Notes: generated from the letters alone by a model not told the origin. A stretch of 64,000 nt of DNA from an uncultured Actinomycetota bacterium (GCA_964610315.1 CAZSVM010000005.1:6960-70959), one strand, 5' to 3'. Shown: positions 11,728 through 27,555, numbered from the stretch's first letter. Numbers and translations are program-made.

Positions 11728-12828
11728 ATGAAGAGAGGATCAGAATTCAAGCTTGAAGAAGTAAAAATGTTGATTAATAAAGGTAAAGCTGATGGTATTC
11801 TAACCACAGAGGAGATTGCTGAAACCCTTTCAGATATAGAGCTTTCCAAAGAGCAGATTGAAAACATTTACGATGTTATACAGAATCTGGGAATAGAAAT
11901 TGTAAGCGAAGAAGATGAAGATATCGACAGCGGAAGTTCGGATAAAAAAAGCGGCGATGGGGTTCTGGGCAAGGGCCTGGATCTGACTATAAAATCTCCT
12001 ACCAATGATCCGGTTAGAATGTATCTTAAGGAAATCGGAAAGGTCAGACTTCTGACTGCTTTTGAAGAGGTTAGTCTTGCCAAGAAGATCGAAGCAGGTG
12101 ATCCGGAAGCTAAAAGAATGCTGGTTGAGGCTAATTTAAGACTGGTGGTAAGCATTGCCAAAAAATATGTAGGAAGAGGAATGCTGTTTCTGGATCTTAT
12201 ACAGGAAGGCAATCTGGGCCTTATCAGAGCGGTGGAGAAATTCGATTATAAAAAGGGCTATAAATTTTCTACCTATGCTACATGGTGGATAAGGCAGGCC
12301 ATAACCAGAGCAATAGCAGATCAGGCCAGGACCATAAGAATTCCGGTGCATATGGTGGAAACCATAAACAAATTAATAAGGGTGCAGAGACAGCTTCTGC
12401 AAAAACTGGGAAGAGAACCTACCCCGGAAGAGATTGCCAGAAAAATGAAGTTTTCAGCAGAGAAGGTAAGGGAAATTATGAAGATATCTCAGGAGCCTGT
12501 ATCTCTTGAAACTCCTATAGGCGAGGAGGAGGACAGTCATCTGGGAGATTTTATAGAGGATTCCGAAGTTGAAGCGCCTTCCGATGCTGCTTCCTTCACC
12601 ATGCTGCAGGAACAGCTTCAGGAAGTTTTGAATACATTAAATGACAGGGAAAGAAAAGTCATCCAGTTAAGATTTGGACTTCAGGATGGACACCCCCGAA
12701 CTCTGGAGGAAGTAGGCAGGGAGTTTGGAGTGACCAGGGAAAGAATAAGACAGATAGAGTCAAAAACCCTGGGAAAACTCAGACATCCAAACAGAAGTGG
12801 AGTACTCAGGGATTTTCTAGAGCACTGA
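11728..12828 (+). CDS. rpoD: RNA polymerase primary sigma factor RpoD/SigA
   Basis: [51 protein letters not shown]; follows dnaG. Confidence 0.98.
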
Positions 12829-12853
12829 GACAGCTTCAGGCTGTAAATTACTA

Positions 12854-12881
12854 TTGAAATAAACTTCTTATATACTATAAT
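12854..12881 (+). promoter_or_regulatory. tRNA-Asn promoter TTGAAA-16-TATAAT
   Basis: Near-consensus hexamers ending 24 nt before the tRNA. Confidence 0.7.
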
Positions 12882-12904
12882 AGCTTATCGTGCTTTAATC
12901 AGGT

Positions 12905-12979
<75 letters not shown>

Positions 12980-13127
12980 GAAAATTTGACCCTTCATAAC
13001 AATAAAAATTGGCTGATCTCCTTGGATTTATTTATAAGCAATTGCTTTGTATTTCGATAGACAAATTAATTATTTTTTGTAATAATTTTTTTAATCTTTT
13101 TTAAAAACTTAACCAATACTTTAAAGT

Positions 13128-14024
13128 ATGTCTACAGTTGAAGTAAATCACATAGTCAAATCATATGCAGATAAGCTCGCGGTTGACGATCTGTCTTTCT
13201 CTATAGCTCAAAATGAGATATTTGGTCTAATAGGACCTAATGGTGCGGGCAAGACTACCACCATCAGGATGATGATGGATATAATTAAACCTGATTCGGG
13301 CGAGGTTATAGTTTTTGGAGAGAAATTGAATGAAGCAAGTAAGAATAGACTTGGCTATCTACCCGAAGAAAGAGGATTGTATAAAAAACTGACTGTGATG
13401 GAATCTATTATCTACCTGGCTTCACTTAAAAATATGGTCAGGTCCTCTATAGGGGAAAAAGCTGATGAGTTGCTTAAACAAACAGGTATGCTTCCTTACA
13501 AGAATAAGCGGATTGAAGAATTGAGCAAAGGCATGGGTCAGATTATTCAGCTCATAGTCACCATTATCCATGACCCTGAACTGGTTATTTTTGATGAACC
13601 ATTTTCAAGTCTTGATCCAATTAATACAGAACTAATTAAAAAGTTATTTGTAGGTTTGAGAAACCAGGGTAAGGCAGTAGTTCTAAGTACCCATCAGATA
13701 AATCAGGTAGAGGAACTCTGTGACCGTGTATTAATGATAGACAATGGACATAAAATTCTTTACGGGAGTCTTTCAGAAATCAAAGCCAGGTATAAAACTA
13801 ACACAGTTATTATTGATTTTGAAGGTGAGCTGGGACATATACCGGGAATTATAAAAAAGAGAGTTAACAAAGACTCTGCTGAATTAATCCTTGATAGAAG
13901 TACTACTCCTGAACAAGTCCTAAAACGGTTATTGGACACTGGCTTAACAATCAATCGATTCGAAGTCTCAATTCCTTCACTTAACGAAGTATTTATTGAG
14001 GTGGTGAGTGAAAATAAGAAATAA
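13128..14024 (+). CDS. ABC exporter ATP-binding subunit (YhaQ/NatA-like)
   Basis: GPNGAGKTT, LSKGM, IFDEP; C-terminal DUF4162-like extension. Confidence 0.9.
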   Translation: MSTVEVNHIVKSYADKLAVDDLSFSIAQNEIFGLIGPNGAGKTTTIRMMMDIIKPDSGEVIVFGEKLNEASKNRLGYLPEERGLYKKLTVMESIIYLASLKNMVRSSIGEKADELLKQTGMLPYKNKRIEELSKGMGQIIQLIVTIIHDPELVIFDEPFSSLDPINTELIKKLFVGLRNQGKAVVLSTHQINQVEELCDRVLMIDNGHKILYGSLSEIKARYKTNTVIIDFEGELGHIPGIIKKRVNKDSAELILDRSTTPEQVLKRLLDTGLTINRFEVSIPSLNEVFIEVVSENKK

Positions 14025-15231
14025 GACATTGTTAGTATTCAGACATGAGTTCTTTCATACAGTAAAAAGAGCAGGGTTCATTATACTCGCTCTCTCACTG
14101 CCCGTGCTAGCTCTTCTGGGTATAGGAGTTTATCATATTGTCTCAGGAGCTATTAAACCTTCCACAGAAGTATCCAGGATAGGATATGTCGATGAATCTG
14201 GTGATTTTGACCAGTACACTACACAGGGAAATATAATTCTTATCAGCTATGAAACCCAGGAATCGGCCACACAGGCTTTGATTAAAAAGGACATTAAAGA
14301 ATATTTCATCATTCCACAGGATTTTGTATCAACAGGGATAATCAAACGTTATGTCACACAGCGAGAGCTTGCACCACCCCTTGATACAGTAAATGCAATT
14401 GATGTTTTCCTTTCAAGTAATCTATTGGCCGGAAAAGTACCAGAAAGCACTATTGCAAGGATTGAATCTTCCCCGAATCTTATTACAACCACGCTGACTT
14501 CAACAGGTGACACAGCTACACAACAGGGTGGATACGCAAACTTTATCGTTCCAGGTGTTTTCAGCCTACTGTTGGCATTATCACTTATGCTTAACTCCAG
14601 TTATGTGGTGCAAAGTCTTAGTGAAGAGAAAGAAAATCGGCTTATGGAAATATTGTTATCCTCAGTTTCCACTCGGCAATTGTTGACAGGTAAGGTTCTG
14701 GGTCGGGGGACTGCTGGATTTATACAGGTAATAGTATGGGCAATTTCAATACCTTTACTGCTACGATTGGCATCCTCATCAATTGGAGGTTTTATAAGCA
14801 GTATAAAAATACCACCTGGTTTCCTGGTTCTTGGAATAGTATATTTTATTCTCGGTTATTTGTTATTCAGTGTCCTTTCTGCGGCTGTGGCTGCTATCAG
14901 TCCCACCATAAGAGAAGCACAGTCATTGGCATCAATATACACACTTTTCGCTTTTGTACCATTGTGGTTTTTGTCTTTGCTGATGTTCTTCCCTAATAAT
15001 CCAATTTGGATTGTTTTTAGTATTTTTCCTTTTAGTGCACCTGTGATGATAATGTTGCGCATGGGTATTACTGACGTACCTGTATGGCAAATTGTTGTTA
15101 GTATGATCGTATTGTTGTCATGCATTATTGGGGGATTGTTTTTAGCAGCCAAACTACTGAGGACTTATATACTGATGTATGGCAAAAGACCAAATCTTAA
15201 AGAGATTATAAAGAATTTTAAAAGTGTATAG
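14008..15231 (+). CDS. ABC-2 type permease (YhaP/NatB-like)
   Basis: SEEKENRLMEILLSSVS...LLTGKVLG motif; multiple TM helices. Confidence 0.9.
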   Translation: MKIRNKTLLVFRHEFFHTVKRAGFIILALSLPVLALLGIGVYHIVSGAIKPSTEVSRIGYVDESGDFDQYTTQGNIILISYETQESATQALIKKDIKEYFIIPQDFVSTGIIKRYVTQRELAPPLDTVNAIDVFLSSNLLAGKVPESTIARIESSPNLITTTLTSTGDTATQQGGYANFIVPGVFSLLLALSLMLNSSYVVQSLSEEKENRLMEILLSSVSTRQLLTGKVLGRGTAGFIQVIVWAISIPLLLRLASSSIGGFISSIKIPPGFLVLGIVYFILGYLLFSVLSAAVAAISPTIREAQSLASIYTLFAFVPLWFLSLLMFFPNNPIWIVFSIFPFSAPVMIMLRMGITDVPVWQIVVSMIVLLSCIIGGLFLAAKLLRTYILMYGKRPNLKEIIKNFKSV

Positions 15232-15319
15232 ATGCAATTATTCTGATATTATTTCGCATTGAATATTTGATTCTAACAGTGAATGTTTATAACTTATACA
15301 TATATCTAATTTATAAGAA

Positions 15320-15347
15320 ATTCTAAAAGCGTCCATACAGAGAGCCA
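15320..15347 (+). repeat. tRNA-3'-like att site 1 (degenerate, 1-nt deletion; DAFR type)
   Basis: ATTCTAAAAGCGTCCATACAGAGAGCCA. Confidence 0.7.
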
Positions 15348-15438
15348 GATAATTAAGGATCTTGATTATATAAAAATATAGGTAGTTTTAATTTTTTCTA
15401 ATTCATCTTTTAAATCAGTAAATTCATTAAAATAAAAA

Positions 15439-15467
15439 GTTCGAAATGTGTCCACTAAGGGGAGCCA
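15439..15467 (+). repeat. tRNA-3'-like att site 2 (DTFRTFY type)
   Basis: GTTCGAAATGTGTCCACTAAGGGGAGCCA; minus strand reads WLPLVDTFRTFYFNEFTDLKDELEKIKTTYIFI*. Confidence 0.85.
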
Positions 15468-15643
15468 GCATAAAATCCGGGCTCTTCACCAACAAACGGG
15501 GCAACCCGCTCTAACAACATAGTGCTTTAACTCTCAATCTGTAGTTTTCAAAGTTCCTAAACCTATAAAACCTGTAGGAGATCTCTAAAAGTTTTTAAGG
15601 ATCTTTTCGAATTAATAAGAAGGACGATAAAAAGAATTTAAAT

Positions 15644-15683
15644 TTACCATAAATTATGGTAATATATACATAAATTATGGTAA
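15644..15683. promoter_or_regulatory. Palindromic operator TTACCATAA-A-TTATGGTAA plus a partial tandem copy upstream of the HTH gene
   Basis: Perfect 9-1-9 inverted repeat at 15644-15662; CATAAATTATGGTAA repeated at 15669-15683. Confidence 0.7.
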
Positions 15684-15695
15684 AGGAGTTAAAGT

Positions 15696-16025
15696 ATGTT
15701 GGAACCAGTTCTGGGTAATAGTACGATAGAAAAAATTTTATTTACTCTTGAATCTTATGGACAGGCGTATCCTTTAGAGTTATCAAAATTGTTTGATATT
15801 CCAGTAAATGGAATTCAGCAGCAGATGGATCGTCTTGAGAACGGTGGAGTAATAGTTAGTTCAATGGTAGGAAGAACTAGATTATATAAATTTAATCCAA
15901 GGTACCCTTTTTTAAAAGAGTTGAGAGCATTAGTCCAAAGAGCAATGGAATTTCTTTCTGAAAAAGAAATACGAAAATATTACCGAAGGAGAACAAGACC
16001 AAGAAAAAAGGGTAAACCATTATGA
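15696..16025 (+). CDS. Winged-helix (ArsR-like) HTH protein, putative antitoxin/regulator
   Basis: ELSKLF...IQQQMDRLENGGVIVS...GRTRLY.FN pattern; overlaps the next ORF. Confidence 0.75.
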   Translation: MLEPVLGNSTIEKILFTLESYGQAYPLELSKLFDIPVNGIQQQMDRLENGGVIVSSMVGRTRLYKFNPRYPFLKELRALVQRAMEFLSEKEIRKYYRRRTRPRKKGKPL

Positions 16026-16570
16026 ATATAGATTGGGAAAGGGTTGAAATTAAAGAACTGGCAGCGATAATCTCTTCTCATTTACAAAAGAATGGCATTG
16101 AAGTTGTTTTAGTAGGGGGAGCCTGTGTTTCACTCTACTCGGAAAATCAATATATATCATATGATATCGATTTGATAACAGATACCCCTATAAAAAAAAT
16201 AACTCCAGTGCTTGAAGAGTTAGGATTTAAAAATGCTGGTGGTCGTTTATTTGAAAACCCTAAATGTGGATTCTTGATAGATTTTCCTGCTCCTCCTGTA
16301 TCAGTTGGAGATGAACGACCAGTCTCCGAATTTAATTATCTAAATACACAATTCGGTACAATATGTTTATTAACGCCCACAGATTGTATTAAAGATAGGT
16401 TAGCAGCATATTTTTTCTGGAATGATAACCAATCTTTTGACCAGGCTATCATGGTAGCAGAAAGGAATAAAATCAATTTTCAAGAAATAAAAAAGTGGGC
16501 TGAAAAACAAAGTGAGTTGGAAAAGTATGAGGTCTTTAAGAAGAAATGCAGAGAGAAGAAGGTTTGCTAA
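16022..16570 (+). CDS. Nucleotidyltransferase-fold protein (AbiEii/DUF6036-like)
   Basis: VVLVGGACVS...SYDIDL (GG + DxD) motif. Confidence 0.7.
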   Translation: MNIDWERVEIKELAAIISSHLQKNGIEVVLVGGACVSLYSENQYISYDIDLITDTPIKKITPVLEELGFKNAGGRLFENPKCGFLIDFPAPPVSVGDERPVSEFNYLNTQFGTICLLTPTDCIKDRLAAYFFWNDNQSFDQAIMVAERNKINFQEIKKWAEKQSELEKYEVFKKKCREKKVC

Positions 16571-16625
16571 TATAGTGGATAATATATTTTTTTAAAATGA
16601 TATCTAAAAATTTTAGAAATGATTG

Positions 16626-16654
16626 TTATTAATATCGTCCAGTCCTGGGAGCCA
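16626..16654 (+). repeat. tRNA-3'-like att site 3 (divergent)
   Basis: TTATTAATATCGTCCAGTCCTGGGAGCCA; minus strand WLPGLDDI... Confidence 0.7.
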
Positions 16655-17064
16655 GCAATTTTTTAATTAAATTAAAGATTTTTTATAAACTCTTGTCAAT
16701 GTATATATTTATGGATGCCCAAAAACATTTTATATATAAGCAATCTCTTTTAGAACAGGATATTAAATTTAAATTTTTATTTCAGGGTTTGGATGTTTCT
16801 AAAATATACTTTACATTAATCTCTAATTAAAGTTATATAATAATAAATATAATATATAATAAATACACGCTAATACTTTCATGGTATAATGGAAAAGAAC
16901 AGTAAGGTTAGCAGCAAGGTTATTATTAAATAATGTTTTGATATAAAGAGTCCGCATTTTTAAGCGAACCTTCCAAAATAAAGTCAGAGTTTTTTACATT
17001 AATTTATACTATTCCTGTTTTTCTTGTATAAAGATAATTTATAAAAAAATGAAAGGAAATTGGA

Positions 17065-17412
17065 GTGAATAAAAGACTATATGTAGGTAATCTGGAATAC
17101 TCTACCACAGACAAAGAACTGGAGGAATTATTCTCCAGTGAAGGAAGTATAACCTATGCAAAGGTAATTAGAAGTCTGGATGGTAAGTCGAAGGGTTTTG
17201 GATTTGTAGAAATGGGAACCGAGGAAGAGGCAGCTAAAGCCATAGAAAAGTACAACCAGGGTAGTTTCAAAGAAAGAACTATTGTGGTAAATGAAGCCCG
17301 TCCTCAGAGAAATAGAAGTTTTAACGGAAACAGAAGAAGTGGAAATTACCGAAATACACCTAAAGATGATCTTAATTATAAGTTAAGAAGAATAAGAAGA
17401 AGGGTTAGGTAG
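17065..17412 (+). CDS. RRM-domain RNA-binding protein
   Basis: RNP2 LYVGNL, RNP1 KGFGFVEM, VNEARP, basic tail. Confidence 0.93.
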   Translation: MNKRLYVGNLEYSTTDKELEELFSSEGSITYAKVIRSLDGKSKGFGFVEMGTEEEAAKAIEKYNQGSFKERTIVVNEARPQRNRSFNGNRRSGNYRNTPKDDLNYKLRRIRRRVR

Positions 17413-17539
17413 GTTTTTTAGAATCCTTAAGTAAAGGCAAGATGTTGCGTATTGTTTTATCCATGATTCCGAACCCAGGAACCTTCGTAATTCTTACCTA
17501 ATAAAGATTAAAAAGTTTAAGTTGTTTATAAGGATCAAG

Positions 17540-18649
17540 GTGATAGAAATTAAAAGAGGGTCAGAGTTTAAAATAGAAGAAGTAAAGATGTTGATTAGTA
17601 AAGGTAAGGTAGACGGCCTGCTTACCATGGAGGAAATCACTGAAACACTTTCAGATATAGAACTTTCCAAAGAGCAGGTTGAAAACATTTATGATGTTAT
17701 TCAAAACCTGGGAATAGAAATTGTAAGCGAAGATGATGAAGATATTAACAGTGGAGGTTCAGGTAAAAAAGACGAGGGGGAGGTTTTAGGCAAAGGGCTG
17801 GATCTTACTATTAAATCTCCTACAAATGATCCGGTTAGAATGTACCTTAAGGAAATTGGAAAGGTTAGGCTTCTTACTGCTTTTGAAGAAGTGCAGCTGG
17901 CAAAAAAAAATGAAGCGGGGAACTTAGCGGCAAGACAATTGCTGGTGGAGGCGAACCTGAGACTGGTGGTAAGTATCGCCAAAAAGTATTTTGGAAGAGG
18001 TTTGCTTTTTTTAGACCTCATACAGGAAGGAAATCTTGGACTGATAAAGGCGGTAGAGAAATTTGATTACAGGAGAGGTTTTAAATTTTCTACATACGCA
18101 ACCTGGTGGATAAGACAGGCTATTACAAGAGCTTTGGCTGATCAGGCCAGGACTATTAGAATCCCGGTTCATATGATAGAGAACATTAATAAATTAGTCA
18201 GGGTCCAAAGACAATTGCTTCAAGAGCTTGGTAGGGATCCTTCACCAGAAGAGATTTCAAAGAAAATGGATTTTACCCCTGGCAAGATAAGGGAAATAAT
18301 CAAAATAAGCCAGCATCCTATTTCATTTGAAACTCCCATAGGTGACGAGGGTGATAGTAACCTTGGCGATTTCATAGAGGATTCTGAAGTAGAAGCGCCT
18401 TCTGCAGCTGCTTCTTTTACTATGTTACAGGAGCAGCTGCATGAAGTTCTAAATACATTAAATGACAGAGAAAGAAAAATTATCCAGTTAAGGTTCGGGC
18501 TTCAAGATGGACATCCCAGAACTCTGGAAGAAGTGGGCAGGGAGTTTGGAGTAACCAGAGAAAGAATAAGACAGATAGAATCAAAAGCTTTGGGAAAGCT
18601 CAGACATCCAAATAGAAGCGGTGTTTTAAGGGATTTTCTGGAGCACTAA
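17540..18649 (+). CDS. rpoD: Second RpoD/SigA paralogue (start uncertain: TTG 17522, GTG 17540 or ATT 17549)
   Basis: Colinear with 11728-12828 over its full length; intact frame. Confidence 0.92.
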
Positions 18650-18814
18650 GTTAACTGTAGACTGTAATTTAGTTGTGGTCTATCATGTTAGTAGGTTTGT
18701 TACCGGCTTTGTTACTGGGTATTTTAAAGTGGAATTTAATCACTTTTTTTAGCTAAATTACTATTGAAATAAACTTCTTATATACTATAAAAGCTTATCG
18801 TGTGCTATCCAAGT

Positions 18815-18888
<74 letters not shown>

Positions 18889-19095
18889 GCATAAAATCCT
18901 TTGGCTCTTCACCAACAAATGGGGCAACTCATTCTAACCTAATACTTTAGTTAATAAATTTATCGATAAATTACTTATGATTTAAATTCTCTCTCCTCAG
19001 CTAAAGAATAATTTTTTTGTAACAATTTCTACAAAAAATGGTCAGATATAATGTTATTTAAAATATTTTTTATGTAAAAAAGTATAACTGTTGAT

Positions 19096-20397
19096 ATGTC
19101 ATTTATAGATTTTTCTAGAAACAAAATTAAGAAACTGCTGATTAAAGAGGACAATATAATACTTGAAAATAATGCTCCTTCCTATGAGAGCCTTGAATAT
19201 AAGTTTCAGGATATAGATGAATTCGGACTTTATCTTCATATTCCTTTCTGCAGGCAAATCTGTCCCTACTGCCCTTACAACAAAGAAATCTATAAACCCG
19301 AGGTAGCAAAATTGTATGCAGAAGCTGTGAAAAAGGAAATTAACTTCTATTGCAAACTTTTTGGTGGTAAGCCTGTAACTACATTCTATGTTGGTGGTGG
19401 GACCCCTACAACTATGCTTTATAGTGGTCTTTACGAGATTTTAGAATATATATATAGAAATTTTAATATGCAGTGTGATATACATATGGAGAGCCATCCT
19501 AATGATTTGAGTGAAGATAATCTTAACACTATAAAGTCTCTTGGCATAAAGCACTTGAGCACAGGAGTGGAGGCTCTTGAAGATAAGTACTTAAAAGTTC
19601 TTAACAGGCTATATAATACTAAAAGAGTAAAGGAAGCAGCTGAAAGGGTAGCCAGTAAAGGATTTAAATGTTTTAATGTAGACTTCATCTTTGCTTTACC
19701 TAATCAGTCCTACAGTGAGGTAGAGAAAGCAGGTCACGATTTAGTTAAAATGGGTGTTGATCAAGTAGCAGCTTACCCCTTCTTTAAATTCCCATATACT
19801 AAAATGGGGGGAGATTCTGATGAGGTAAATTATAACGTATCTACGGTATTTAAAAGACGTAAAATGCTCAGTATTCTTGAGAGCATTTTCTATGATGCTG
19901 GTTTTGAAAGAACTTCTGTCTGGGCATTTACCAAAAAAGGAGTTCCAAAATACTGTTCGGTAACAGTACCTCTTTATGTTGGTCTTGGTGCCAGCGGTGG
20001 AACATATCTAAAGGATATTTTTTATCTAAATACTTTCAATGTTTCTGAATATATCATGGCGATGGATAGTGGAAAGATGCCAATTGCCTTATCACTTGAT
20101 CTCTCAGAAAACATGCAGATGGCCTGGTGGCTTTATTGGAGAGTCTATGAAACCAGGTTTAAGAGAAGCGATTTTGAAAGAAGATTTGGAAAGAAGTTCA
20201 ATGAAATCTACGGAAAATGCATAAAGTGGTTTTCCCTTTTTGGTTTAATAAAAAAAGATGATGGAGACCGAATAGTTCTTACAGATAGGGGGGCATATTG
20301 GCTACATTCAATTGAGGATCTATTTTCATTAAATTATATAGGTAAGTTATGGGGAACTTCAAAGCAAGAGCCTTGGCCTAAAAGGGTAGAACTGTAA
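19096..20397 (+). CDS. HemN/HemW-like radical SAM protein
   Basis: LYLHIPFCRQICPYC, YVGGGTPT, NVDFIFALPNQ. Confidence 0.9.
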   Translation: MSFIDFSRNKIKKLLIKEDNIILENNAPSYESLEYKFQDIDEFGLYLHIPFCRQICPYCPYNKEIYKPEVAKLYAEAVKKEINFYCKLFGGKPVTTFYVGGGTPTTMLYSGLYEILEYIYRNFNMQCDIHMESHPNDLSEDNLNTIKSLGIKHLSTGVEALEDKYLKVLNRLYNTKRVKEAAERVASKGFKCFNVDFIFALPNQSYSEVEKAGHDLVKMGVDQVAAYPFFKFPYTKMGGDSDEVNYNVSTVFKRRKMLSILESIFYDAGFERTSVWAFTKKGVPKYCSVTVPLYVGLGASGGTYLKDIFYLNTFNVSEYIMAMDSGKMPIALSLDLSENMQMAWWLYWRVYETRFKRSDFERRFGKKFNEIYGKCIKWFSLFGLIKKDDGDRIVLTDRGAYWLHSIEDLFSLNYIGKLWGTSKQEPWPKRVEL

Positions 20398-20410
20398 CAG
20401 ATTTAATAAA

Positions 20411-21289
20411 ATGAAAAATATAATCTTTGGAATAAAATATATAATTGGTAATCAAATCTTAAAAAGACGCACCCCTCTTATTGCTGGGTTAGCTATAACC
20501 AACAAATGTAATTTACGATGCAAACATTGTAGAGTACCCGAACGCAAGACAGAAGATATGAGTTTTGAGAAAATAATTACTGTAATTGATTCATTTTACA
20601 AAGAGGGAGGTCGTACTGTCTATATTGAAGGTGGCGAACCATTTATTTGGCATGATAGACAACATAATCTTGAAGATATTGTCGAATATGCCCATAAAAA
20701 AAGATTTCATACGGTTATTATTTATACAAATGGTACATTCCCGATAGAAACCTCAGCTGATACTGTTTTTATTAGTGTTGATGGACTCAAGGAAACTCAC
20801 AATCTCATACGCGGGAAAACGTTTGACAGGATAATGGGAAATATTCATGAATCAGAGCATCCTTCACTATATATAAATTTTACAATTAATAATTACAACA
20901 AAGATGAAATAGAAGCATTTTGTGAAAATGTAGATAGAATAAATCAGATACGTGGTATATTTTTTTATTTCCATACACCCTATTATGGACATGATGATTT
21001 ATATATAGAAACTCCCAAAAGAGAGGAAATTTTACTCAGGTTATTAGATTTTAAAAAGAAATACAAAATATTGAACTCGCAAGCAGGTATAAAATCAGCA
21101 ATAAAAAATGATTGGAAGCGACCTTTAGATATTTGTCGTATTTATGAAAACAAGGTCGTGTATGAATGTTGCAGATATTCTGGAGATGCTGAACTATGTA
21201 AAAAATGTGGGTATCTGAGTTACGCTGAAATAGATCAGACATTAAAATTAAAGCCATCAGCTATTTTCAATGCATTAAAATATTTTTAG
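20411..21289 (+). CDS. Radical SAM protein (C-terminal Cys cluster)
   Basis: CNLRCKHC, GGEP, YTNG, ISVDG; C-terminal C...CC...CKKC. Confidence 0.9.
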   Translation: MKNIIFGIKYIIGNQILKRRTPLIAGLAITNKCNLRCKHCRVPERKTEDMSFEKIITVIDSFYKEGGRTVYIEGGEPFIWHDRQHNLEDIVEYAHKKRFHTVIIYTNGTFPIETSADTVFISVDGLKETHNLIRGKTFDRIMGNIHESEHPSLYINFTINNYNKDEIEAFCENVDRINQIRGIFFYFHTPYYGHDDLYIETPKREEILLRLLDFKKKYKILNSQAGIKSAIKNDWKRPLDICRIYENKVVYECCRYSGDAELCKKCGYLSYAEIDQTLKLKPSAIFNALKYF

Positions 21290-21422
21290 TTCCAATTTTT
21301 TTATTATATATAAAAAGGATATCAAAGCTCAAATATTGTTAATATTAACCAATCATCTGAGACAGCTACCCATTATTTATAATAATTCTTGATTTAATTT
21401 AAAGTTTAAGTTGATTGGATTA

Positions 21423-21451
21423 GTTCTAAAAGCGTCCGATATGGGGAGCCA
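21423..21451 (+). repeat. tRNA-3'-like att site 4 (DAFRT type)
   Basis: GTTCTAAAAGCGTCCGATATGGGGAGCCA; minus strand WLPISDAFRTNPINLNFKLNQELL*. Confidence 0.85.
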
Positions 21452-21602
21452 ACAACTCTTTTACTTTAGCTTTTCGCGAGGTGATTGTATAATATTTCCT
21501 AAATATATTCAGATTTAGTAATGTGAAGCTTTAACGAATAACAATAAAGTTAAAAATAAATTCTTCCGAACTTTGTTTGTATGCTAAGAGGGTGAAATTC
21601 AA

Positions 21603-21842
21603 ATGAAAGTGACTATAATCAACGGCAGCCCTCGCATGGATAAGGGATACACCTCACAGATTCTGGAGCCACTCATCGAAGGAATGAAAGATGCAAGAGC
21701 GGAAGTGACTTTAAAGAATCCCAAGAGCCGGAATAAGCCCCTGTTAAATCCTGGAGGGCCAGTTTCAATAACTGCAAATGAAAGGGCATTCTATTTATGG
21801 AATTGGAACGTAAAAAGTATTGGCTTCTTTTTTACGGATTAA
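21603..21842 (+). pseudogene. N-terminal fragment of a flavodoxin/NADPH-dependent FMN reductase
   Basis: MKVTIINGSPRMDKGYT...GMKDARAEV, then similarity is lost. Confidence 0.6.
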
Positions 21843-23260
21843 TAATTGGAGTCTCGTTTGATATTTTTTTCTATGATAGGACACTGGGTATTTCTTATCC
21901 GATTTTTATTATTCTAATTCTACTGATGTTTCTGGGAAGCTTCTGGGGTTCTTTAAAGAAATTAAATAATCTGATATGGTTATTTACAGTTCCTATATTA
22001 TTACTGGCGATTACTTTCTTTGTCTACTCTAATCAAATACTTAGAATTTTAAATTATCTGATTGTTCCTATTCTTATAATAATGTTTAGTTCTCTGGTTA
22101 CAGAGGTGAATAAATCAAGTTGGTCGGATATAAGATTTATAGGAGATGTTGCTAAGAGGATTTTCGTGCCTTTTGGATTTATACATAAACCATTTTTAAC
22201 ATTGTTTAAAATAAATGTTGGTGAAGGTAAAGATAATAGAAGTAGGGTTCTGCCAAAAGTGTTTATTGGAATATTGATTTCGATTCCAATTCTGGCAATT
22301 ATTATATGGCTTCTCTCGTCTGCAGATATTATATTTAAGAATCTTTTTGTAAATATCCCTGTTTCAAAAATAATCAAACACTTTTTAACGATAATTGCAG
22401 TTTTTGTTTATGCCACTTGTTTTCTATGGTCGTTGATAAAAGCCTTTGATGAGAGGAAGGGGTCTACATATAGTAAGATAAAATGGAAATTATTTTTTGA
22501 TCCTATAATTTTATTGACTTTACTGGTTTTAATAAATGTAATTTACGCTGTATTCTCTGTTATTCAGTTTGCTTATCTTTTTGGTGGGAGTTCTTTTGTT
22601 TTACCTTCTTCTTATACTTATGCAGAATATGCAAGAAGAGGCTTTTTTGAACTGGTTATTGTATCAATTATTAATTTTGGAGTTCTACTTTTTGGTATCA
22701 CATTTGTAAAGAAAGATAATAAAAGAATCTTTGCTGTTATTAAGGCTCTTCTTACCTTGCTTGTAATCTTTACCTTTATTTTATTGATATCCGCGTTTTA
22801 TAGAATGCTGGTTTATGAGCAAGCATATGGATTTACATATCTCAGGATATTTGTTCAGACTTTTATGATAATGCTATTTTTCTTGTTTATTATTAATGTT
22901 GCCTATATTTGGCAGCCGAAGCTACCTATAATTAAATCTTATTTTATAATTTCACTTGCAGTTTATATAATAATGAATTTTTCAAATGTGGATGTCATAA
23001 TAGCAAAAAATAACATCAATCGTTATTTTGAAACCGGACAAATTGATATGGTTTATTTAGAAGGTCTGTCCTACGATGCTACACCTGAAATGCAGAGACT
23101 TTTAATGTCGGTTAAAGATTCATCAGACCCGGAAGAAAAACAAATTGCAGAGAAAATCGTAGAATACTTCAATAAAAGAAAATTAGATCTTGAAGATCAA
23201 AAAAGCTGGCAGAGTTTTAATATTTCAAAATTTAAAGCTGAAAAAATAATAGATAAATAA
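21797..23260 (+). CDS. DUF4153/DUF4173 membrane protein
   Basis: LLSSAD..F, TYAEYARRGFFEL, YEQAYGFTYLR, YLEGLSYDA motifs. Confidence 0.85.
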   Translation: MELERKKYWLLFYGLIIGVSFDIFFYDRTLGISYPIFIILILLMFLGSFWGSLKKLNNLIWLFTVPILLLAITFFVYSNQILRILNYLIVPILIIMFSSLVTEVNKSSWSDIRFIGDVAKRIFVPFGFIHKPFLTLFKINVGEGKDNRSRVLPKVFIGILISIPILAIIIWLLSSADIIFKNLFVNIPVSKIIKHFLTIIAVFVYATCFLWSLIKAFDERKGSTYSKIKWKLFFDPIILLTLLVLINVIYAVFSVIQFAYLFGGSSFVLPSSYTYAEYARRGFFELVIVSIINFGVLLFGITFVKKDNKRIFAVIKALLTLLVIFTFILLISAFYRMLVYEQAYGFTYLRIFVQTFMIMLFFLFIINVAYIWQPKLPIIKSYFIISLAVYIIMNFSNVDVIIAKNNINRYFETGQIDMVYLEGLSYDATPEMQRLLMSVKDSSDPEEKQIAEKIVEYFNKRKLDLEDQKSWQSFNISKFKAEKIIDK

Positions 23261-23266
23261 TTCTTT

Positions 23267-24259
23267 TCAGCCTTTGAATTTTTCTGGATAACAAGCTCTC
23301 ACAGTGGCAACAATTGATTCCTTTAGTCCTCCTCTTTTATACCCCAGCTTTTCTGCAGTATCCGAAGGATCAAAGAATAAATTATGAGTTAAAATATCAC
23401 GCATAAGGTACTTGCCGTCAAGCCCGCCTTCCAATCCTTTTTTCTTCCATCCCTTATTTATCATACTGCCGGCTATTACAGCTATAAATCGCGGAATATT
23501 TATTATTTTTTTATGTGTTCCTATAGCTGATAGCATCATATCCAGCATTTCATTGTATGAGTGGTTTTCATCACCTATGGTGTACCGTTCACCATGTTCA
23601 CCATGCTCTAGAGCTCCTATAATTGCTTCGCCGACATGCTCTACAGCAATCATATTTGTTCCGCCCTTAGGGAAAAAGATGATTTTACTTTTTATAATGC
23701 GATCCAGTAGAACATCCTTCCATAAAGGAATACGGTTGGGCATGGAACCAAATATGTAAGGAAGTTCTAGGATCATAACTGCCATTTTATCTCCGCCTGC
23801 AGCAATAGCTCGCTCTGCCTGTTCCACACGACATCTTATATAAGGATGGTGTTTGCTCAGCTCTTTTTCCGGCCAGATCCTGTCAAAATATGCAAAATAG
23901 GAATTAAGAACAACGCATTTATTGACATTCGCTTTACGTGCTGCGATTACTACTTTTTTGCAGGCCTTCACAAGTCTGGTATGAAAAAATCCATACGAGG
24001 GAGCAGGCGGTGTGATTCTATCGTCCGGACCTACAGCGTACACCATAGCATCACAACCGGCAAAACGTTCCTGCAGGTTTTCCTCTGAAAGTTCAAATAC
24101 ATCACCATACTGGACATTTACTTCTTTAGGATACCAGTCCTCAAGTTCTATATCGTCAATCGCAAGAGTATTCACCGAGTATCCTCTTTTTAATGCTACA
24201 AGCATTGCGTGGTAGCCTAGAAATCCAGTTCCCCCTACAATCATAATTTTCATATGCAC
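23267..24259 (-). CDS. NAD-dependent epimerase/dehydratase family protein
   Basis: GGTGFLG Rossmann motif; extended SDR length. Confidence 0.85.
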   Translation of the reverse strand: MHMKIMIVGGTGFLGYHAMLVALKRGYSVNTLAIDDIELEDWYPKEVNVQYGDVFELSEENLQERFAGCDAMVYAVGPDDRITPPAPSYGFFHTRLVKACKKVVIAARKANVNKCVVLNSYFAYFDRIWPEKELSKHHPYIRCRVEQAERAIAAGGDKMAVMILELPYIFGSMPNRIPLWKDVLLDRIIKSKIIFFPKGGTNMIAVEHVGEAIIGALEHGEHGERYTIGDENHSYNEMLDMMLSAIGTHKKIINIPRFIAVIAGSMINKGWKKKGLEGGLDGKYLMRDILTHNLFFDPSDTAEKLGYKRGGLKESIVATVRACYPEKFKG

Positions 24260-24390
24260 CGCTCCTTTATGTAAGATTTCCTATTTTTTTGCTTCTTCCT
24301 TTATTAAATTTTGCATAAAGAAATAATATTAGAGTTTTTTTAATTAAATTGGTTTTTTCTTTTACTGAACTAATTTCATTAAAATAAAAA

Positions 24391-24419
24391 GTTCTAAATA
24401 TGTCAATTAAGGGGAGCCA
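24391..24419 (+). repeat. tRNA-3'-like att site 5 (DxFRTFY type)
   Basis: GTTCTAAATATGTCAATTAAGGGGAGCCA; minus strand WLPLIDIFRTFYFNEI... 50 aa to stop at 24267. Confidence 0.85.
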
Positions 24420-24531
24420 GATTTGATCGATTGTAAGAACTTTTTTATATTTCTTAAAATTGATGTAAATTACCCTATCTCTTTATAGCAATTTTAAGTT
24501 ATAATTTATACATATATTTAATACTCCTATA

Positions 24532-24560
24532 GTTCTAAAAGCGTCCAATATAGGGAGCTA
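24532..24560 (+). repeat. tRNA-3'-like att site 6 (DAFRT type, CCA->CTA)
   Basis: GTTCTAAAAGCGTCCAATATAGGGAGCTA; minus strand *LPILDAFRTIGVLN... Confidence 0.8.
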
Positions 24561-24683
24561 ATCTTCATAGTTGCATTTATTATCAGATTTACTGCAAAAA
24601 TAAATTCCGGTAACTATTTTTTTAAATTGAATCGACAATTATTAAATTCAAGTATTTACTATTAGTTTATAAGTATTGTATAA

Positions 24684-25814
24684 TTGTCTAAATTTAAAAA
24701 ATTAATAGTCCGGCACATCTATATTATGAGATTGAATATAAGTTATAAAAAAATAATAACCATTATATTTATTACAATTGTACTTATATTTTTCCCTTTT
24801 CGCTTTATTTTAGGGGAAAGCGAAAACATTAATGCAGAAAATAATATCACATCAGGGAATTCTGCAGAAGATATAATAGTATATTGTGATTATTATACCT
24901 GGTGGAGCGAAAGTAAATGGAATATAGGGCATTCCAATTGTCCTTTACTTGGATTTTATAACAGTCTTGATCTGAAAGTTTTAAAAGAACATTCAAGATT
25001 AGCTAATGAATACGGCATTGATGTTTTTAAAGTTGAATATGTCCCAGCATTGGACGGAAGTATAATAAATGGAATATTGAAAACGGATCTGGGAAATACA
25101 AGGGTCTGCCTGATGTATGATACCCTGGTAAGGTTTTTAAGCTTGGGTAAGGGGCGGCCGCCTTATAATTTTAATGATCCCGAAATCTATAACACATTTA
25201 TAGATGATATGAATCATATAGCTGATGTTTATTTTTCTAACCCGAATTACTTTAATATAAATGGAAGACCAGTATTATGGATTTATATTACAAGAGAGAT
25301 GCGTGGGAACTGGAAAAGTGCTATTAATACTGCAAGGCAGAATATGAATAGCAAGGGATTTAATGTGTACTTAGTAGGAGATCATGTTTTTTGGAGTTAT
25401 AATTATAATGGCATTGAATTATTTGATGCTGTTTCTACTTATCATGTTTACGCAGGCAGACCGCAAAATACTTCAGATTTTGCTAATAAAATAAAATTGT
25501 TGTATTCAAGATGGGATAAAGTTGTGCAGTCCAAAGGCAAGGATTTTATCCCAGGAGCGTTACCTGCTTATAATGATACCTGTATGGCATATGCAAGATA
25601 TTGTGTACCTTCATTAAGTGGTACAAAAGAAGATTTTAATTATATGCTAAGAACTGTTTCAAATTATCTAGATCGTATAAATGGTGCTGAAAATTTAATG
25701 CAGGTAACAATAGCTACATTCAATGAAAATCAGGAGGGAAGTGGCGTTGAACCTTCATTAGAGTGGGGATATGATAGAATAAGCCAGATACCAATTGTTT
25801 TTGGGAGCAATTAG
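24684..25814 (+). CDS. Secreted glycoside hydrolase, GH99/GH71-like
   Basis: N-terminal TM; YYTWW, PLLGFYNS, GIDVF, NGRPVLWIY, PAYNDT, TFNENQEGSGVEP; start may be the ATG at 24726. Confidence 0.75.
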   Translation: MSKFKKLIVRHIYIMRLNISYKKIITIIFITIVLIFFPFRFILGESENINAENNITSGNSAEDIIVYCDYYTWWSESKWNIGHSNCPLLGFYNSLDLKVLKEHSRLANEYGIDVFKVEYVPALDGSIINGILKTDLGNTRVCLMYDTLVRFLSLGKGRPPYNFNDPEIYNTFIDDMNHIADVYFSNPNYFNINGRPVLWIYITREMRGNWKSAINTARQNMNSKGFNVYLVGDHVFWSYNYNGIELFDAVSTYHVYAGRPQNTSDFANKIKLLYSRWDKVVQSKGKDFIPGALPAYNDTCMAYARYCVPSLSGTKEDFNYMLRTVSNYLDRINGAENLMQVTIATFNENQEGSGVEPSLEWGYDRISQIPIVFGSN

Positions 25815-25836
25815 CATATATTTTCATATCTTTTAT

Positions 25837-25865
25837 GTTCTAAAAGCATCCAAGATGGGGAGCCA
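25837..25865 (+). repeat. tRNA-3'-like att site 7 (DAFRT type)
   Basis: GTTCTAAAAGCATCCAAGATGGGGAGCCA; minus strand WLPILDAFRT*. Confidence 0.85.
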
Positions 25866-25993
25866 AAAAGTATTCTTTCTATCCTTGTAGGAAGCTAAAT
25901 TACTCTGGGTCCTTAGCTGCAATAATTTATCATACGCATTACTATGCAAAACTCTAGGGCTCTTAATATTTTGCATTGAGGGAAATTTCTATA

Positions 25994-26212
25994 TTATTGT
26001 ATAATATCTTCTATTTTTACAAATTTGGTTTTAGATTTCTTTTTCCTAGTTTCAAACTCTTCAATTACTTTCTTGTCTTTAATTTCATCGTAAAGGTCCC
26101 ACAAAGATCTTTTAAGTAAACTTGAAGAATCACAATTGTAGTATTTTCTTAAAATTTTCAATATCTTTTCTTCTTTAGTATTAAATCTTACAGTATTACT
26201 GCCACTTTTCAT
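25994..26212 (-). CDS. Small ribbon-helix-helix antitoxin-like protein (DUF6290/RelB-like), no toxin partner
   Basis: 72 aa; TVRF.. beta strand, SSLLKRSL..LYDEIKD..VIEEFE. Confidence 0.55.
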   Translation of the reverse strand: MKSGSNTVRFNTKEEKILKILRKYYNCDSSSLLKRSLWDLYDEIKDKKVIEEFETRKKKSKTKFVKIEDIIQ

Positions 26213-26362
26213 ACACCTCTTCTCTTTTACCGATGTAAATTATATAAAAATCATCATTTAATATATAAAAAAGTGCTCTGCATTTACCTTTTCTTAATCT
26301 ATAGTAGTCTCTATGGTAATTGAATTAAGTTATCAAAACTTAAGCAATTTTCAGAATAAAAA

Positions 26363-26391
26363 GTTCGAAATGTGTCAACTAAGGGGAGCCA
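26363..26391 (+). repeat. tRNA-3'-like att site 8 (DTFRTFY type)
   Basis: GTTCGAAATGTGTCAACTAAGGGGAGCCA; minus strand WLPLVDTFRTFYSENCLSFDNLIQLP*. Confidence 0.85.
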
Positions 26392-26554
26392 GCACAAATA
26401 TACAGAAGCATAATATAAATAACTCTTCGGCTTAATTTATATATTTATTAATAAATTATTTATGGGTTTAACCCTTCCCGACTATCTGTTTCTAATTTGT
26501 TTCTGATATTATTAATTTCTTAAAAAAAGTTTGAATATATCAGCAAATGTTAAA

Positions 26555-27334
26555 TTATTTTGTACAGAAATATATATCTTCACTTTCAGGAAGTCCCATA
26601 TATTTAACTGTTTTATCTCCTAATTTTTTTACAAAACCATCTACTTTTACTGAAAATCCAGCAGCAATCAGAAAATCTCTATAATCTTTTCCATAACCTC
26701 TCACATGCTCTGCAAAACCATATATTTTTTCCCTGGCTTTAGGGGTTGTAGCGACTGGATCTTCAAAGGTTAATTCACCAAGTATCGGAACCTGTAGTAT
26801 TGCCCATCCTCCAGGTTTTAAAATCCTATAAATTTCACGCATCGCATTTTTATGATCTGGAATATGCTCAAAAACATGGTTACAGATTATTACATCAAAA
26901 ATATTATCACTCATTTTTATATCTGTTATGTCAATGTAAATCATAGCACGAGTTGGATCAAGATCAGCGCTTAAATATTCTATAAATTCATTTTTTCTAA
27001 TTCTATCGGATAATACAACTTCAGGAGCAACATGTAGGATTTTCTTTTTAGGGCTTTTAAAGAAATTGGTATATTCTTCGAGGTAGAACCATAAAAGCCT
27101 TTCTCTTTCAATAGAGCCACAAACAGGACAAAGTGCATATGGTCTTGGACCAATTTTGATATGTGGTGGGAAATAATATGTGTAAAATTTTCTAATTTTG
27201 CTATCACAGACAGGACAGAATCTTTCATTTCCATAAAAAATTTCTTTCTTTAATTTTTCTCTATATCTGCCTGGGGTTATTTTAATAGCGCCTTCAATTA
27301 AAAATCTTTTTAAATTTTTTATTTTATTAATCAT
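26555..27334 (-). CDS. Class I SAM-dependent methyltransferase with N-terminal CxxC..CxxC
   Basis: CPVC x2, ILHVAPE, FDVIICNHVFEHI, RILKPGG. Confidence 0.88.
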   Translation of the reverse strand: MINKIKNLKRFLIEGAIKITPGRYREKLKKEIFYGNERFCPVCDSKIRKFYTYYFPPHIKIGPRPYALCPVCGSIERERLLWFYLEEYTNFFKSPKKKILHVAPEVVLSDRIRKNEFIEYLSADLDPTRAMIYIDITDIKMSDNIFDVIICNHVFEHIPDHKNAMREIYRILKPGGWAILQVPILGELTFEDPVATTPKAREKIYGFAEHVRGYGKDYRDFLIAAGFSVKVDGFVKKLGDKTVKYMGLPESEDIYFCTK

Positions 27335-27526
27335 TCTAATTATTTTCTCATTATATCTTTTTTTTAACTTCTATGTATATAACTAAACTTCTAATAATTT
27401 TTAAAGGACTTAAGGAAAGTGGTTAAAATATATAAAAATACCCTTATCTAAACCAATAACTCTTATTTGAATATTGTCTATTTAATTCAGTAATTTTCTA
27501 AATTTCTCTAATTCCCTTAATAATTG

Positions 27527-27555
27527 GTTAGAAGTTAGTCTTATAGGGGGAGCCA
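27527..27555 (+). repeat. tRNA-3'-like att site 9 (most distal, decayed)
   Basis: GTTAGAAGTTAGTCTTATAGGGGGAGCCA; minus strand WLPL*D*LLT. Confidence 0.7.

Follow-up and report, generated by a model that had tools for sequence, protein, structure and literature searches.

The DNA considered here, referred to below as the window, is a 64,000-nucleotide (nt) stretch of contig C5 of an uncultured Actinomycetota bacterium (GCA_964610315.1 CAZSVM010000005.1:6960-70959). It contains two tRNA-Asn genes with nine copies of a ~30-nt repeat downstream, all on the plus strand and ending at positions 15347, 15467, 16654, 21451, 24419, 24560, 25865, 26391, and 27555. Seven of these sites were named in an earlier note on the same DNA and all seven are present; the copies ending at 15347 and 27555 are additional. 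A scan with the pattern GTTCKAAAN3GTCN7GGGAGCCA, allowing up to two mismatches, gave seven matches, all on the plus strand between 15.4 and 27.6 kb, with none in 100 dinucleotide-preserving shuffles. Minus-strand translation of the copies, started at the CCA position, yields peptides of the type WLPxxDxFRT, and the 3′ ends of both tRNA-Asn genes read WLPE-stop in the same frame; the earlier note was right on both points. The open frame around each WLP is closed 0-41 codons upstream of the W, so these “tails” are not free-standing genes. Across the window and its relatives, three types of tail occur: A-type tails have 33 codons, with an identical stop in seven of eight loci (that of locus L061 is one codon longer); B-type tails share a nearly invariant first 29 nt, followed by an unconserved reading of variable length; and C-type tails have 12 codons. 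The features are listed below, with coordinates counted from the first nucleotide of the window; “outside-tail HMM” designates a hidden Markov model (HMM) of 29 outside tails of large serine recombinases (LSRs), discussed further on.

12905-12979, plus strand: tRNA-Asn(GTT), copy 1 (Rfam tRNA, 74.3 bits); putative B arm of the attachment site, 3′ end reading WLPE-stop on the minus strand
12980-27522, no strand assigned: island of cargo modules without an integrase, with tails between them (gene and domain searches)
15318-15347, minus strand: degenerate repeat copy, core AGAGAGCCA (nhmmer E 0.0074)
15366-15467, minus strand: long A-type tail, 33 codons plus stop (outside-tail HMM E 8.5e-7), with tails of about equal length at seven other loci
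15480-15515, plus strand: right flank in common with the flank of tRNA copy 2 (18903-18938, 89%; sequence similarity)
16613-16654, minus strand: decayed repeat copy, WLPGLDDI..., with the GAAC motif gone
18815-18888, plus strand: tRNA-Asn(GTT), copy 2, within the island (Rfam tRNA, 54.7 bits), with an altered D-loop
21377-21451, minus strand: B-type tail of 24 amino acids (aa), WLPISDAFRT plus 14 unconserved residues, closing a radical-SAM module
24267-24419, minus strand: A-type tail, open for 50 codons (outside-tail HMM E 6.5e-6)
24528-24560, minus strand: B-type copy with TAG replacing the TGG codon (pattern and translation)
25833-25865, minus strand: B-type tail of 10 aa, WLPILDAFRT followed by a stop (pattern and translation)
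26311-26391, minus strand: A-type tail, 26 codons, divergent past codon 12 (outside-tail HMM E 5.1e-5)
27523-27555, minus strand: most degenerate copy, WLPL-stop, at the distal edge of the array (pattern and translation)

Tails and tRNAs are related but not interchangeable. Both tRNA-Asn genes and the tails have in common a 9-bp core, GGGGAGCCA, consisting of the acceptor end and CCA. When the two tRNA 3′ ends are aligned with six of the tails (MAFFT), a single 5-nt gap appears, between GTTC and GAGTCC. On the coding strand of the tails, this places the T-loop hexamer TCGAAC at nt 19-24 after TGG in the tRNA and 5 nt farther out in the tails, where it (or its one-base variant TAGAAC) is read as F-R-T. 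The offset is identical in two pairs of metagenome loci, L126/L117 at tRNA-Asn and L174/L179 at tRNA-His. The Rfam tRNA covariance model, with matches accepted to E 1, recognizes the two full tRNA-Asn genes alone and none of the tails.

The gene to which the tails belong can be recognized in relatives. The earlier note had proposed that each repeat is the detached C-terminal tail of a recombinase, possibly an LSR, which would end in WLPE-stop when integrated and carry the tail when free, and the relatives bear this out. G024, which belongs to the same family (f1), encodes a 492-aa LSR that has Resolvase, Recombinase, and Zn_ribbon_recom domains and the C-terminus ...NANKCSNWLPE, with the TAG stop lying inside the reverse complement of tRNA-Asn; a second gene, in G065, ends with WLGRKDSNL inside another tRNA. 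A homolog search with the G024 protein, in which 8000 candidates were scored, found 1587 homologs at E <= 1e-20. Among the 119 homologs listed, 23 have a WLPxxDxFRT or close-variant tail of 13-54 residues, and many others end in reverse-read tRNA T-arm strings (...DSN..., for example). Eighty metagenome loci were then retrieved using an alignment of the tailed forms. For 43 of them, a tRNA on the opposite strand contains the LSR stop (26 Asn, 6 Arg, 5 Gln, 4 His, 1 Pro, 1 Glu); the tailed form accounts for 10, eight run off the contig end, and 19 are otherwise, including several with tRNA-like endings at contig ends. An LSR with this domain set is thus found beside the site in relatives (G024, 43 of the 80 loci), not in the window.

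Two pairs of these loci catch one enzyme in both conditions. The LSRs of L174, which has a tail, and L179, which has its stop in tRNA-His, are the same (100% identity over 497 aa), and those of L126 (tail) and L117 (tRNA-Asn) are 89% identical. The occurrence of the same LSR in tailed and tRNA-ended states indicates that the gene, when in its attP configuration, natively ends with the tail, and that integration swaps the tail for tRNA sequence. The long tail type of the window can also be tied to such a gene: in a relative, G009, the 89-codon open frame of a degraded LSR continues in frame into an A-type tail.

Our preferred reading, to which we would give a probability of roughly 0.85, is that the repeat represents the P arm and crossover core of the attP of a tRNA-Asn-targeting LSR element, with attP inside the LSR gene itself. 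The attP would lie within the last ~30 codons of the recombinase gene, which would be at the tRNA-proximal end of the element and read toward the tRNA. Recombination inside the shared 9 bp would join the gene body to the tRNA, with a stop after WLPE, and leave the original 3′ end of the gene (WLPxxDxFRT...) in attR, at the insert's far end. Many such events would have produced the two tRNA-Asn copies and the nine tails bounding cargo, with the recombinase genes since lost. The anatomy, the two gene states of relatives, the 5-bp shift, and the codon constraint are directly observed; the position of the crossover, the binding of arms to enzyme domains, and the route of recombinase loss are what we infer from the sequences; the origin of the array is the least certain part.

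Several observations weigh against this reading. No element was found with both ends on one contig (that of G024 stops 2 kb into the element), so excision restoring an LSR with its tail is something we infer. In the window, there is neither an LSR gene nor a fragment of one (tblastn, E 1e-3; family HMM, E 1). The right flanks of the window tails, in which P′ remnants were sought, are unlike an LSR 3′ end, with a marginal exception at 25865 (identity of 0.57 across 30 nt, where the 99th percentile of the background is 0.50); simple tandem integration would therefore be insufficient without extra deletions or some other route. As to the tails themselves, the B- and C-types have no conserved frame past codon 10-12, intact LSRs may bear tails of just 13-15 residues, one relative (L134) keeps the DNA motif with a stop inside it, and the substitution patterns give no sign of protein-level selection on detached tails.

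In the absence of an LSR, the array is made up of integrase-less cargo modules: an ABC transporter; a helix-turn-helix (HTH) and nucleotidyltransferase-like pair; an RRM protein with a second rpoD and the second tRNA-Asn; two radical-SAM genes; a DUF4153 membrane protein and an NAD-epimerase-like gene; a WbsX/GH99-like gene; and a methyltransferase. Contig C5 has no matches to either tyrosine or serine recombinases; the five Phage_integrase matches in the genome are on C1, C14, C7, C12, and C13. The 15366-15467 tail is the P arm and core of an attR-type junction closing the ABC-transporter module. The flank beyond it resembles that of tRNA copy 2 (89%), not an LSR 3′ end, and as far as sequence goes this module fits one clean insertion into a tRNA and its flank.

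The ~36-nt stretch 3′ of the core is conserved after the 15467 tail, after tRNA copy 2, and after a tail on contig C7 (~1530-1590), and contains a possible CGGG-GCAA-CCCG hairpin. At 15480-15515 it is likely the B′ side of the original attB, but may alternatively be a terminator. The combination of rpoD and tRNA-Asn occurs twice, at 11728-12979 and 17522-18888, with ~77% identity between the rpoD genes and 90-97% around the tRNAs. The second copy sits inside the island, between tails, and may be either carried-in flanking DNA or a decaying paralog.

Further repeat copies are found in the same genome, at the ends of contigs C2 and C7. With up to one mismatch allowed, 12 of the 36 other family genomes searched have the repeat, and none of 24 genomes from outside does; the reversed-pattern control gave none. 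Five relatives, examined over 20 kb each, have rpoD and tRNA-Asn followed by one to four tails within ~1-13 kb. No intact recombinase was found in these 20-kb stretches, and no cargo is common to the window and the five islands; only the tails and rpoD-tRNA align. Decay of the recombinase can be followed in relatives: a frame-shifted LSR adjoins the tail in G009, and G008 retains a 44-residue fragment. Deletion is therefore enough to account for its absence. The tRNA-Asn island of this genome is a graveyard or platform of LSR insertions.

The array could conceivably instead be a cassette platform, whose P-arm-bounded modules are independent units, inserted, excised, or shuffled in trans by the LSR of a visiting element in the manner of integron cassettes or cis-mobilizable elements. 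Nine tails without an LSR, right flanks that are not LSR-like, and islands in five relatives with the tails and rpoD-tRNA but not the cargo of the window are what such a platform might leave. The B-type repeat is also identical over 29 nt in four genera (g1, g4, g7, and the C7 copy of this genome), and a C-terminal query, the G009 frame (P0002), detects intact LSRs of this lineage in only 2 of 80 family genomes, as against fragments or tails in 26 of the 80. No module was found at two places or in two orders, however, and LSRs are not known to recombine two P-type sites; by their directionality rules, lone attR-type sites are disfavored. With an LSR fragment at L187 and the G009 pseudogene, deletion suffices, and we consider a platform of this kind unlikely.

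The reason for conservation of the WLPxxDxFRT motif appears to lie mostly at the DNA level. For the Listeria A118/LI integrase (Rutherford et al. 2013; PMC3783163), the zinc-ribbon (ZD) motif of the half-site occupies positions 16-24 in attP but 11-19 in attB. A 5-bp outward shift of the distal motif between attP and attB half-sites is present here as well, in one arm only; were the motif's distal 9 nt assigned to positions 16-24, the central dinucleotide would come to lie in the 9-bp core shared with the tRNA. Codon usage also suggests a constraint on DNA. For the Arg of xRT, all nine Arg-bearing tails for which DNA is available use AGA or CGA (the tenth tail has GGA), even on contigs of 62% and 51% GC, where these make up 14% and 7% of LSR Arg codons; multiplied together, the expected fractions give 2.2e-4.

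The earlier note had pointed to largely synonymous variation among the copies as a sign of coding. The variants it listed do exist, but there is no net third-position excess in the alignments, and that argument for protein-level selection on the motif fails. In the seven intact copies of this genome, diversity at the three codon positions is 0.25, 0.08, and 0.19, the first being the most variable, and the ratio of nonsynonymous to synonymous polymorphism (pN/pS) is 0.46, vs. 0.56 and 0.94 in the shifted frames; in codons 1-10 of eight A-type tails from seven genomes, it is 0.96. Together, the 5-bp shift, the fixed Arg codon, and the lack of a coding signal in codons 1-10 suggest that the 10-residue motif is conserved chiefly as a DNA half-site, copying the tRNA T-arm and read in frame.

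Past codon 10 the picture is different. The eight A-type tails, each of 33 codons and in 24%-GC DNA, have no stops in the WLP frame and 12-37 in each other frame, and positions 11-22 of the 29 outside LSR tails hold 10.71 bits of information vs. 6.14 +/- 0.46 for within-tail shuffles, with 0 of 2000 shuffles reaching the observed value; the sequences in both tests are related, so these numbers overstate independence. Position 13 favors an aromatic residue or Arg, position 15 favors E, S, or D, and position 16 favors I or V. With an HMM of the 29 tails, the A-type tails of the window are the best six-frame matches in the genome, at the E values listed above; one built from positions 11-22 alone gave no match at E 10, the profile being too short. 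In codons 11-33 of the A-type tails, pN/pS is 0.59 vs. 0.77-0.78 in the shifted frames, a weak difference. Residues 11-22 show some conservation at the level of the protein.

The LSR has the fold of the SPbeta, Bxb1, phiC31, and LI integrases. Of the 522 profile positions, the C-terminal domain of LI covers only 199-468, which makes the tail an addition. In an AlphaFold2 model of a 524-aa tailed LSR (mean predicted local distance difference test [pLDDT] score 83), the tail is helical, with the block at pLDDT ~80 before a drop to 45. A predicted complex of the tail (P0012, residues 487-524) with residues 150-486 scored 0.51, and the best of three controls 0.01, which is graded as weak support, but the two chains are adjacent in one polypeptide, and the result carries little weight. 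The runs agree in at least 69% of contacts, with a partner pLDDT of at least 63. Of 80 solved complexes, 58 reach the mark for such scores, as do 2 of 110 mismatched pairs; those at or below 0.60 include 7 of the 80 and both of the mismatches. Past codon 10, the tail is a lineage-specific extension of the full-length enzyme, partly conserved and predicted to be helical.

These results bear on whether the repeats could be purely DNA-level att scars without coding meaning, their in-frame continuation being incidental read-through. The substitution pattern of codons 1-10 and the NGA-type Arg codon kept on GC-rich contigs are as expected for scars, as are the variable length and frame of B- and C-type tails past the half-site, the L134 stop, and the very short tails of some intact LSRs; McMurdie et al. 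(2011) judged the equivalent region of the Dehalococcoides LSR DsiB to be divergent and possibly non-functional (PMC3146451). A scar would not, on the other hand, explain why the LSR open reading frame (ORF) crosses the site in every state examined, why 29 diverged LSR tails hold position-specific residues at 11-22, or why A-type tails keep 33 stop-free codons and, in seven of eight loci, the same stop in AT-rich DNA; the helix modeled for the tail would also be unaccounted for. We regard scars without any coding meaning as improbable, more so than a cassette platform.

That the repeats are simply decayed tRNA-Asn 3′ halves, displaced targets of a classical tyrosine-integrase island, is very improbable: they share the acceptor end and a T-loop-like GTTCGA or GTTCTA with the tRNA, and tRNA-linked islands with partial tRNA repeats are common (Islander; tycheposon preprint 10.1101/2020.12.28.424599), but every copy shares one 5-nt insertion and, from the core to GTC, has bases foreign to the tRNA where a displaced fragment would match it, none scores as a tRNA, contig C5 has no tyrosine recombinase, and the adjacent enzyme in relatives is an LSR.

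If the tRNA-Asn element is as proposed, the integrated copy can make only a tail-less enzyme and the circle only a tailed one, and the switch of directionality or stability and the swapping of tails between elements that the earlier note proposed would be logical, if speculative, consequences. The tail might then act as a sensor of state, with the tailed enzyme made from the circle integrating and the tail-less enzyme of the integrated copy, ending in tRNA-derived residues, excising, alone or with a directionality factor. This is speculative, and we think it rather doubtful. If true, direction would depend in part on the 3′ end with which the gene finishes; within tandem arrays, the tail of a neighbor could re-arm a resident recombinase; and the conserved tails on integrase-less modules could let visiting elements move such modules.

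Integrases with attP in their own genes include the archaeal SSV1-type Int and IntP of myxophage Mx8, tyrosine recombinases whose integrated and free forms differ. The LSRs described here are like these in that different proteins are made from the two forms, but only the last ~30 codons are exchanged, leaving the catalytic and DNA-binding domains intact. Integrase-less modules flanked by att sites are also known as the cis-mobilizable elements of streptococcal integrative and conjugative elements, which are found in tandem with, or left by, integrative elements through site-specific accretion; these depend on tyrosine integrases, and the modules of the window resemble them in having flanking att sites and no integrase. 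The array is not an integron cassette array so far as can be told from the recombinases: no IntI-type tyrosine recombinase with attI was found next to it, and C5 has no Phage_integrase match.

The closest precedent is the ssrA-associated islands of Dehalococcoides. As described by McMurdie et al. (2011; PMC3146451), these have the LSR DsiB at the left edge, reading outwards and stopping within ssrA or the following island. The islands occur in tandem, with direct repeats of the target 3′ end as their boundaries, and have a conserved motif beside the repeat that does not align to the target. It was suggested by the authors that a complete gene may exist only on the circle or beside another island. 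The likeness is one of architecture: in both cases, the LSR gene overlaps attL and stops inside the target RNA gene. The target there is tmRNA (ssrA), whereas here it is tRNA-Asn, -Arg, -Gln, -His, -Pro, or -Glu, in a family that is far larger and taxonomically wider. The ssrA islands also have a six-gene integration module including a second, small serine recombinase, DsiA (PMC3146451). No such module was seen among the 10 ORFs upstream of LSRs at nine loci (2.5 kb each), none of which has a Resolvase domain; their matches are to Toprim, HTH, DUF4357, HerA-like, Phage_CRI, helicase, and methylase, or there is no match. Where the C-terminal part of DsiB was judged divergent, there is here a family-wide tail motif. 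Relative to Dehalococcoides, what is new is the presence of the same architecture at tRNA genes, together with a tail motif that can be defined, one enzyme in both of its states, and a T-loop shift of 5 bp. A literature search limited to one library of papers found no other tRNA-targeting LSR with attP inside its gene besides that paper.

Compared with the LI integrase (PMC3783163), the LSRs have the same domain set and fold and a distal motif likewise 5 bp farther from the crossover in attP. Unlike in LI, the shifted motif copies a tRNA T-loop and lies within the enzyme's own reading frame, the shift is clear in one arm (B vs. P), and the tail has no LI counterpart.

The tycheposons of Prochlorococcus (Hackl et al., preprint 10.1101/2020.12.28.424599) are tRNA-linked variable islands formed by repeated integration, with partial-tRNA repeats, degraded elements, and environmental cargo. 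All of these traits are points of likeness. Tycheposons are defined by a lineage-specific, inward-facing tyrosine recombinase, whereas the enzyme of the relatives here is a serine recombinase reading outwards into the tRNA. Twenty-seven of the 937 tycheposon elements have an LSR, and no statement that attP is inside a gene was found in the passages of the preprint consulted.

As to wider consequences, if the preferred reading is right, the tRNA T-loop, copied at a shifted position, illustrates, in nature, the rule of a 5-bp difference between attP and attB. Serine integrases are valued in genome engineering for their short att sites and one-way reaction. They were long said not to target tRNA genes (Islander paper, 2014); the present family, with its 1587 homologs among 8000 scored, is very large and does. 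Both attB and attP of these LSRs could be read straight from the 3′ end of the gene, and a recurring annotation oddity would be explained, recombinase C-termini that are in fact reverse-read tRNAs. The tail could serve as a simple marker for delimiting integrase-less island modules, and the suggestion of two integration-dependent enzyme forms made for Dehalococcoides becomes testable.

The genome containing the window has LSRs of its own on other contigs. An intact LSR of the tail family is on contig C12 and ends in a 24-nt tRNA-like 3′ fragment, where no tRNA was called. The region around it appears as a second island (68304-75541; L008, L077, and L004). In this island, the C-terminal fragment of an LSR carries another kind of tail (WLSAFEKIRT...), and a tyrosine integrase is close by. 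A distinct LSR, on C14 (L006, 44955-46669, 546 aa), was considered as the source of the tails and dropped, because its homologs are without such a motif; those checked in genome contigs were 36 loci at 24-39% identity and one 57-residue fragment at 60%. This protein is ~36-39% identical to proteins of metagenome-assembled genomes of the candidate phyla radiation (CPR/Patescibacteria). A repeat-like site is found 35 nt past its stop, behind a hairpin and outside the gene, with a different core, AGCGAGCCA, and in another frame, reading WLALVDNFRT. Viral contigs searched with the G024 LSR gave no match to the pattern. Three sediment-metagenome sequencing runs from a single study contain 0.91-0.98 of the sampled sequence words, and one of these may be the source; 17 other runs contain small shares.

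Other six-frame matches to the tail profile are on C15 (~2007), C17 (~56498 and ~58770), and C12 (~74956), at E values from 9e-6 to 0.04. Most are near contig ends, which suggests that there are more such junctions at assembly breaks. Likewise, many contigs (L109, L111, L116, L118, L120, L129, L130, and others) end ~30-120 nt past the LSR stop, as expected if assemblies break at the tRNA/att repeat. One locus, L085 (G033:C40), has a 532-codon frame joining a ParB-like/DNA-methylase N-terminal part to the last ~190 LSR residues, with a frame shift before the W, and is probably a deletion chimera. The LSR neighbors at L127, L132, L145, L147, and L173 include a Toprim protein, a Phage_CRI rolling-circle initiator, an HTH regulator, a helicase, and a restriction-modification methylase, so these elements carry replication and defense modules.

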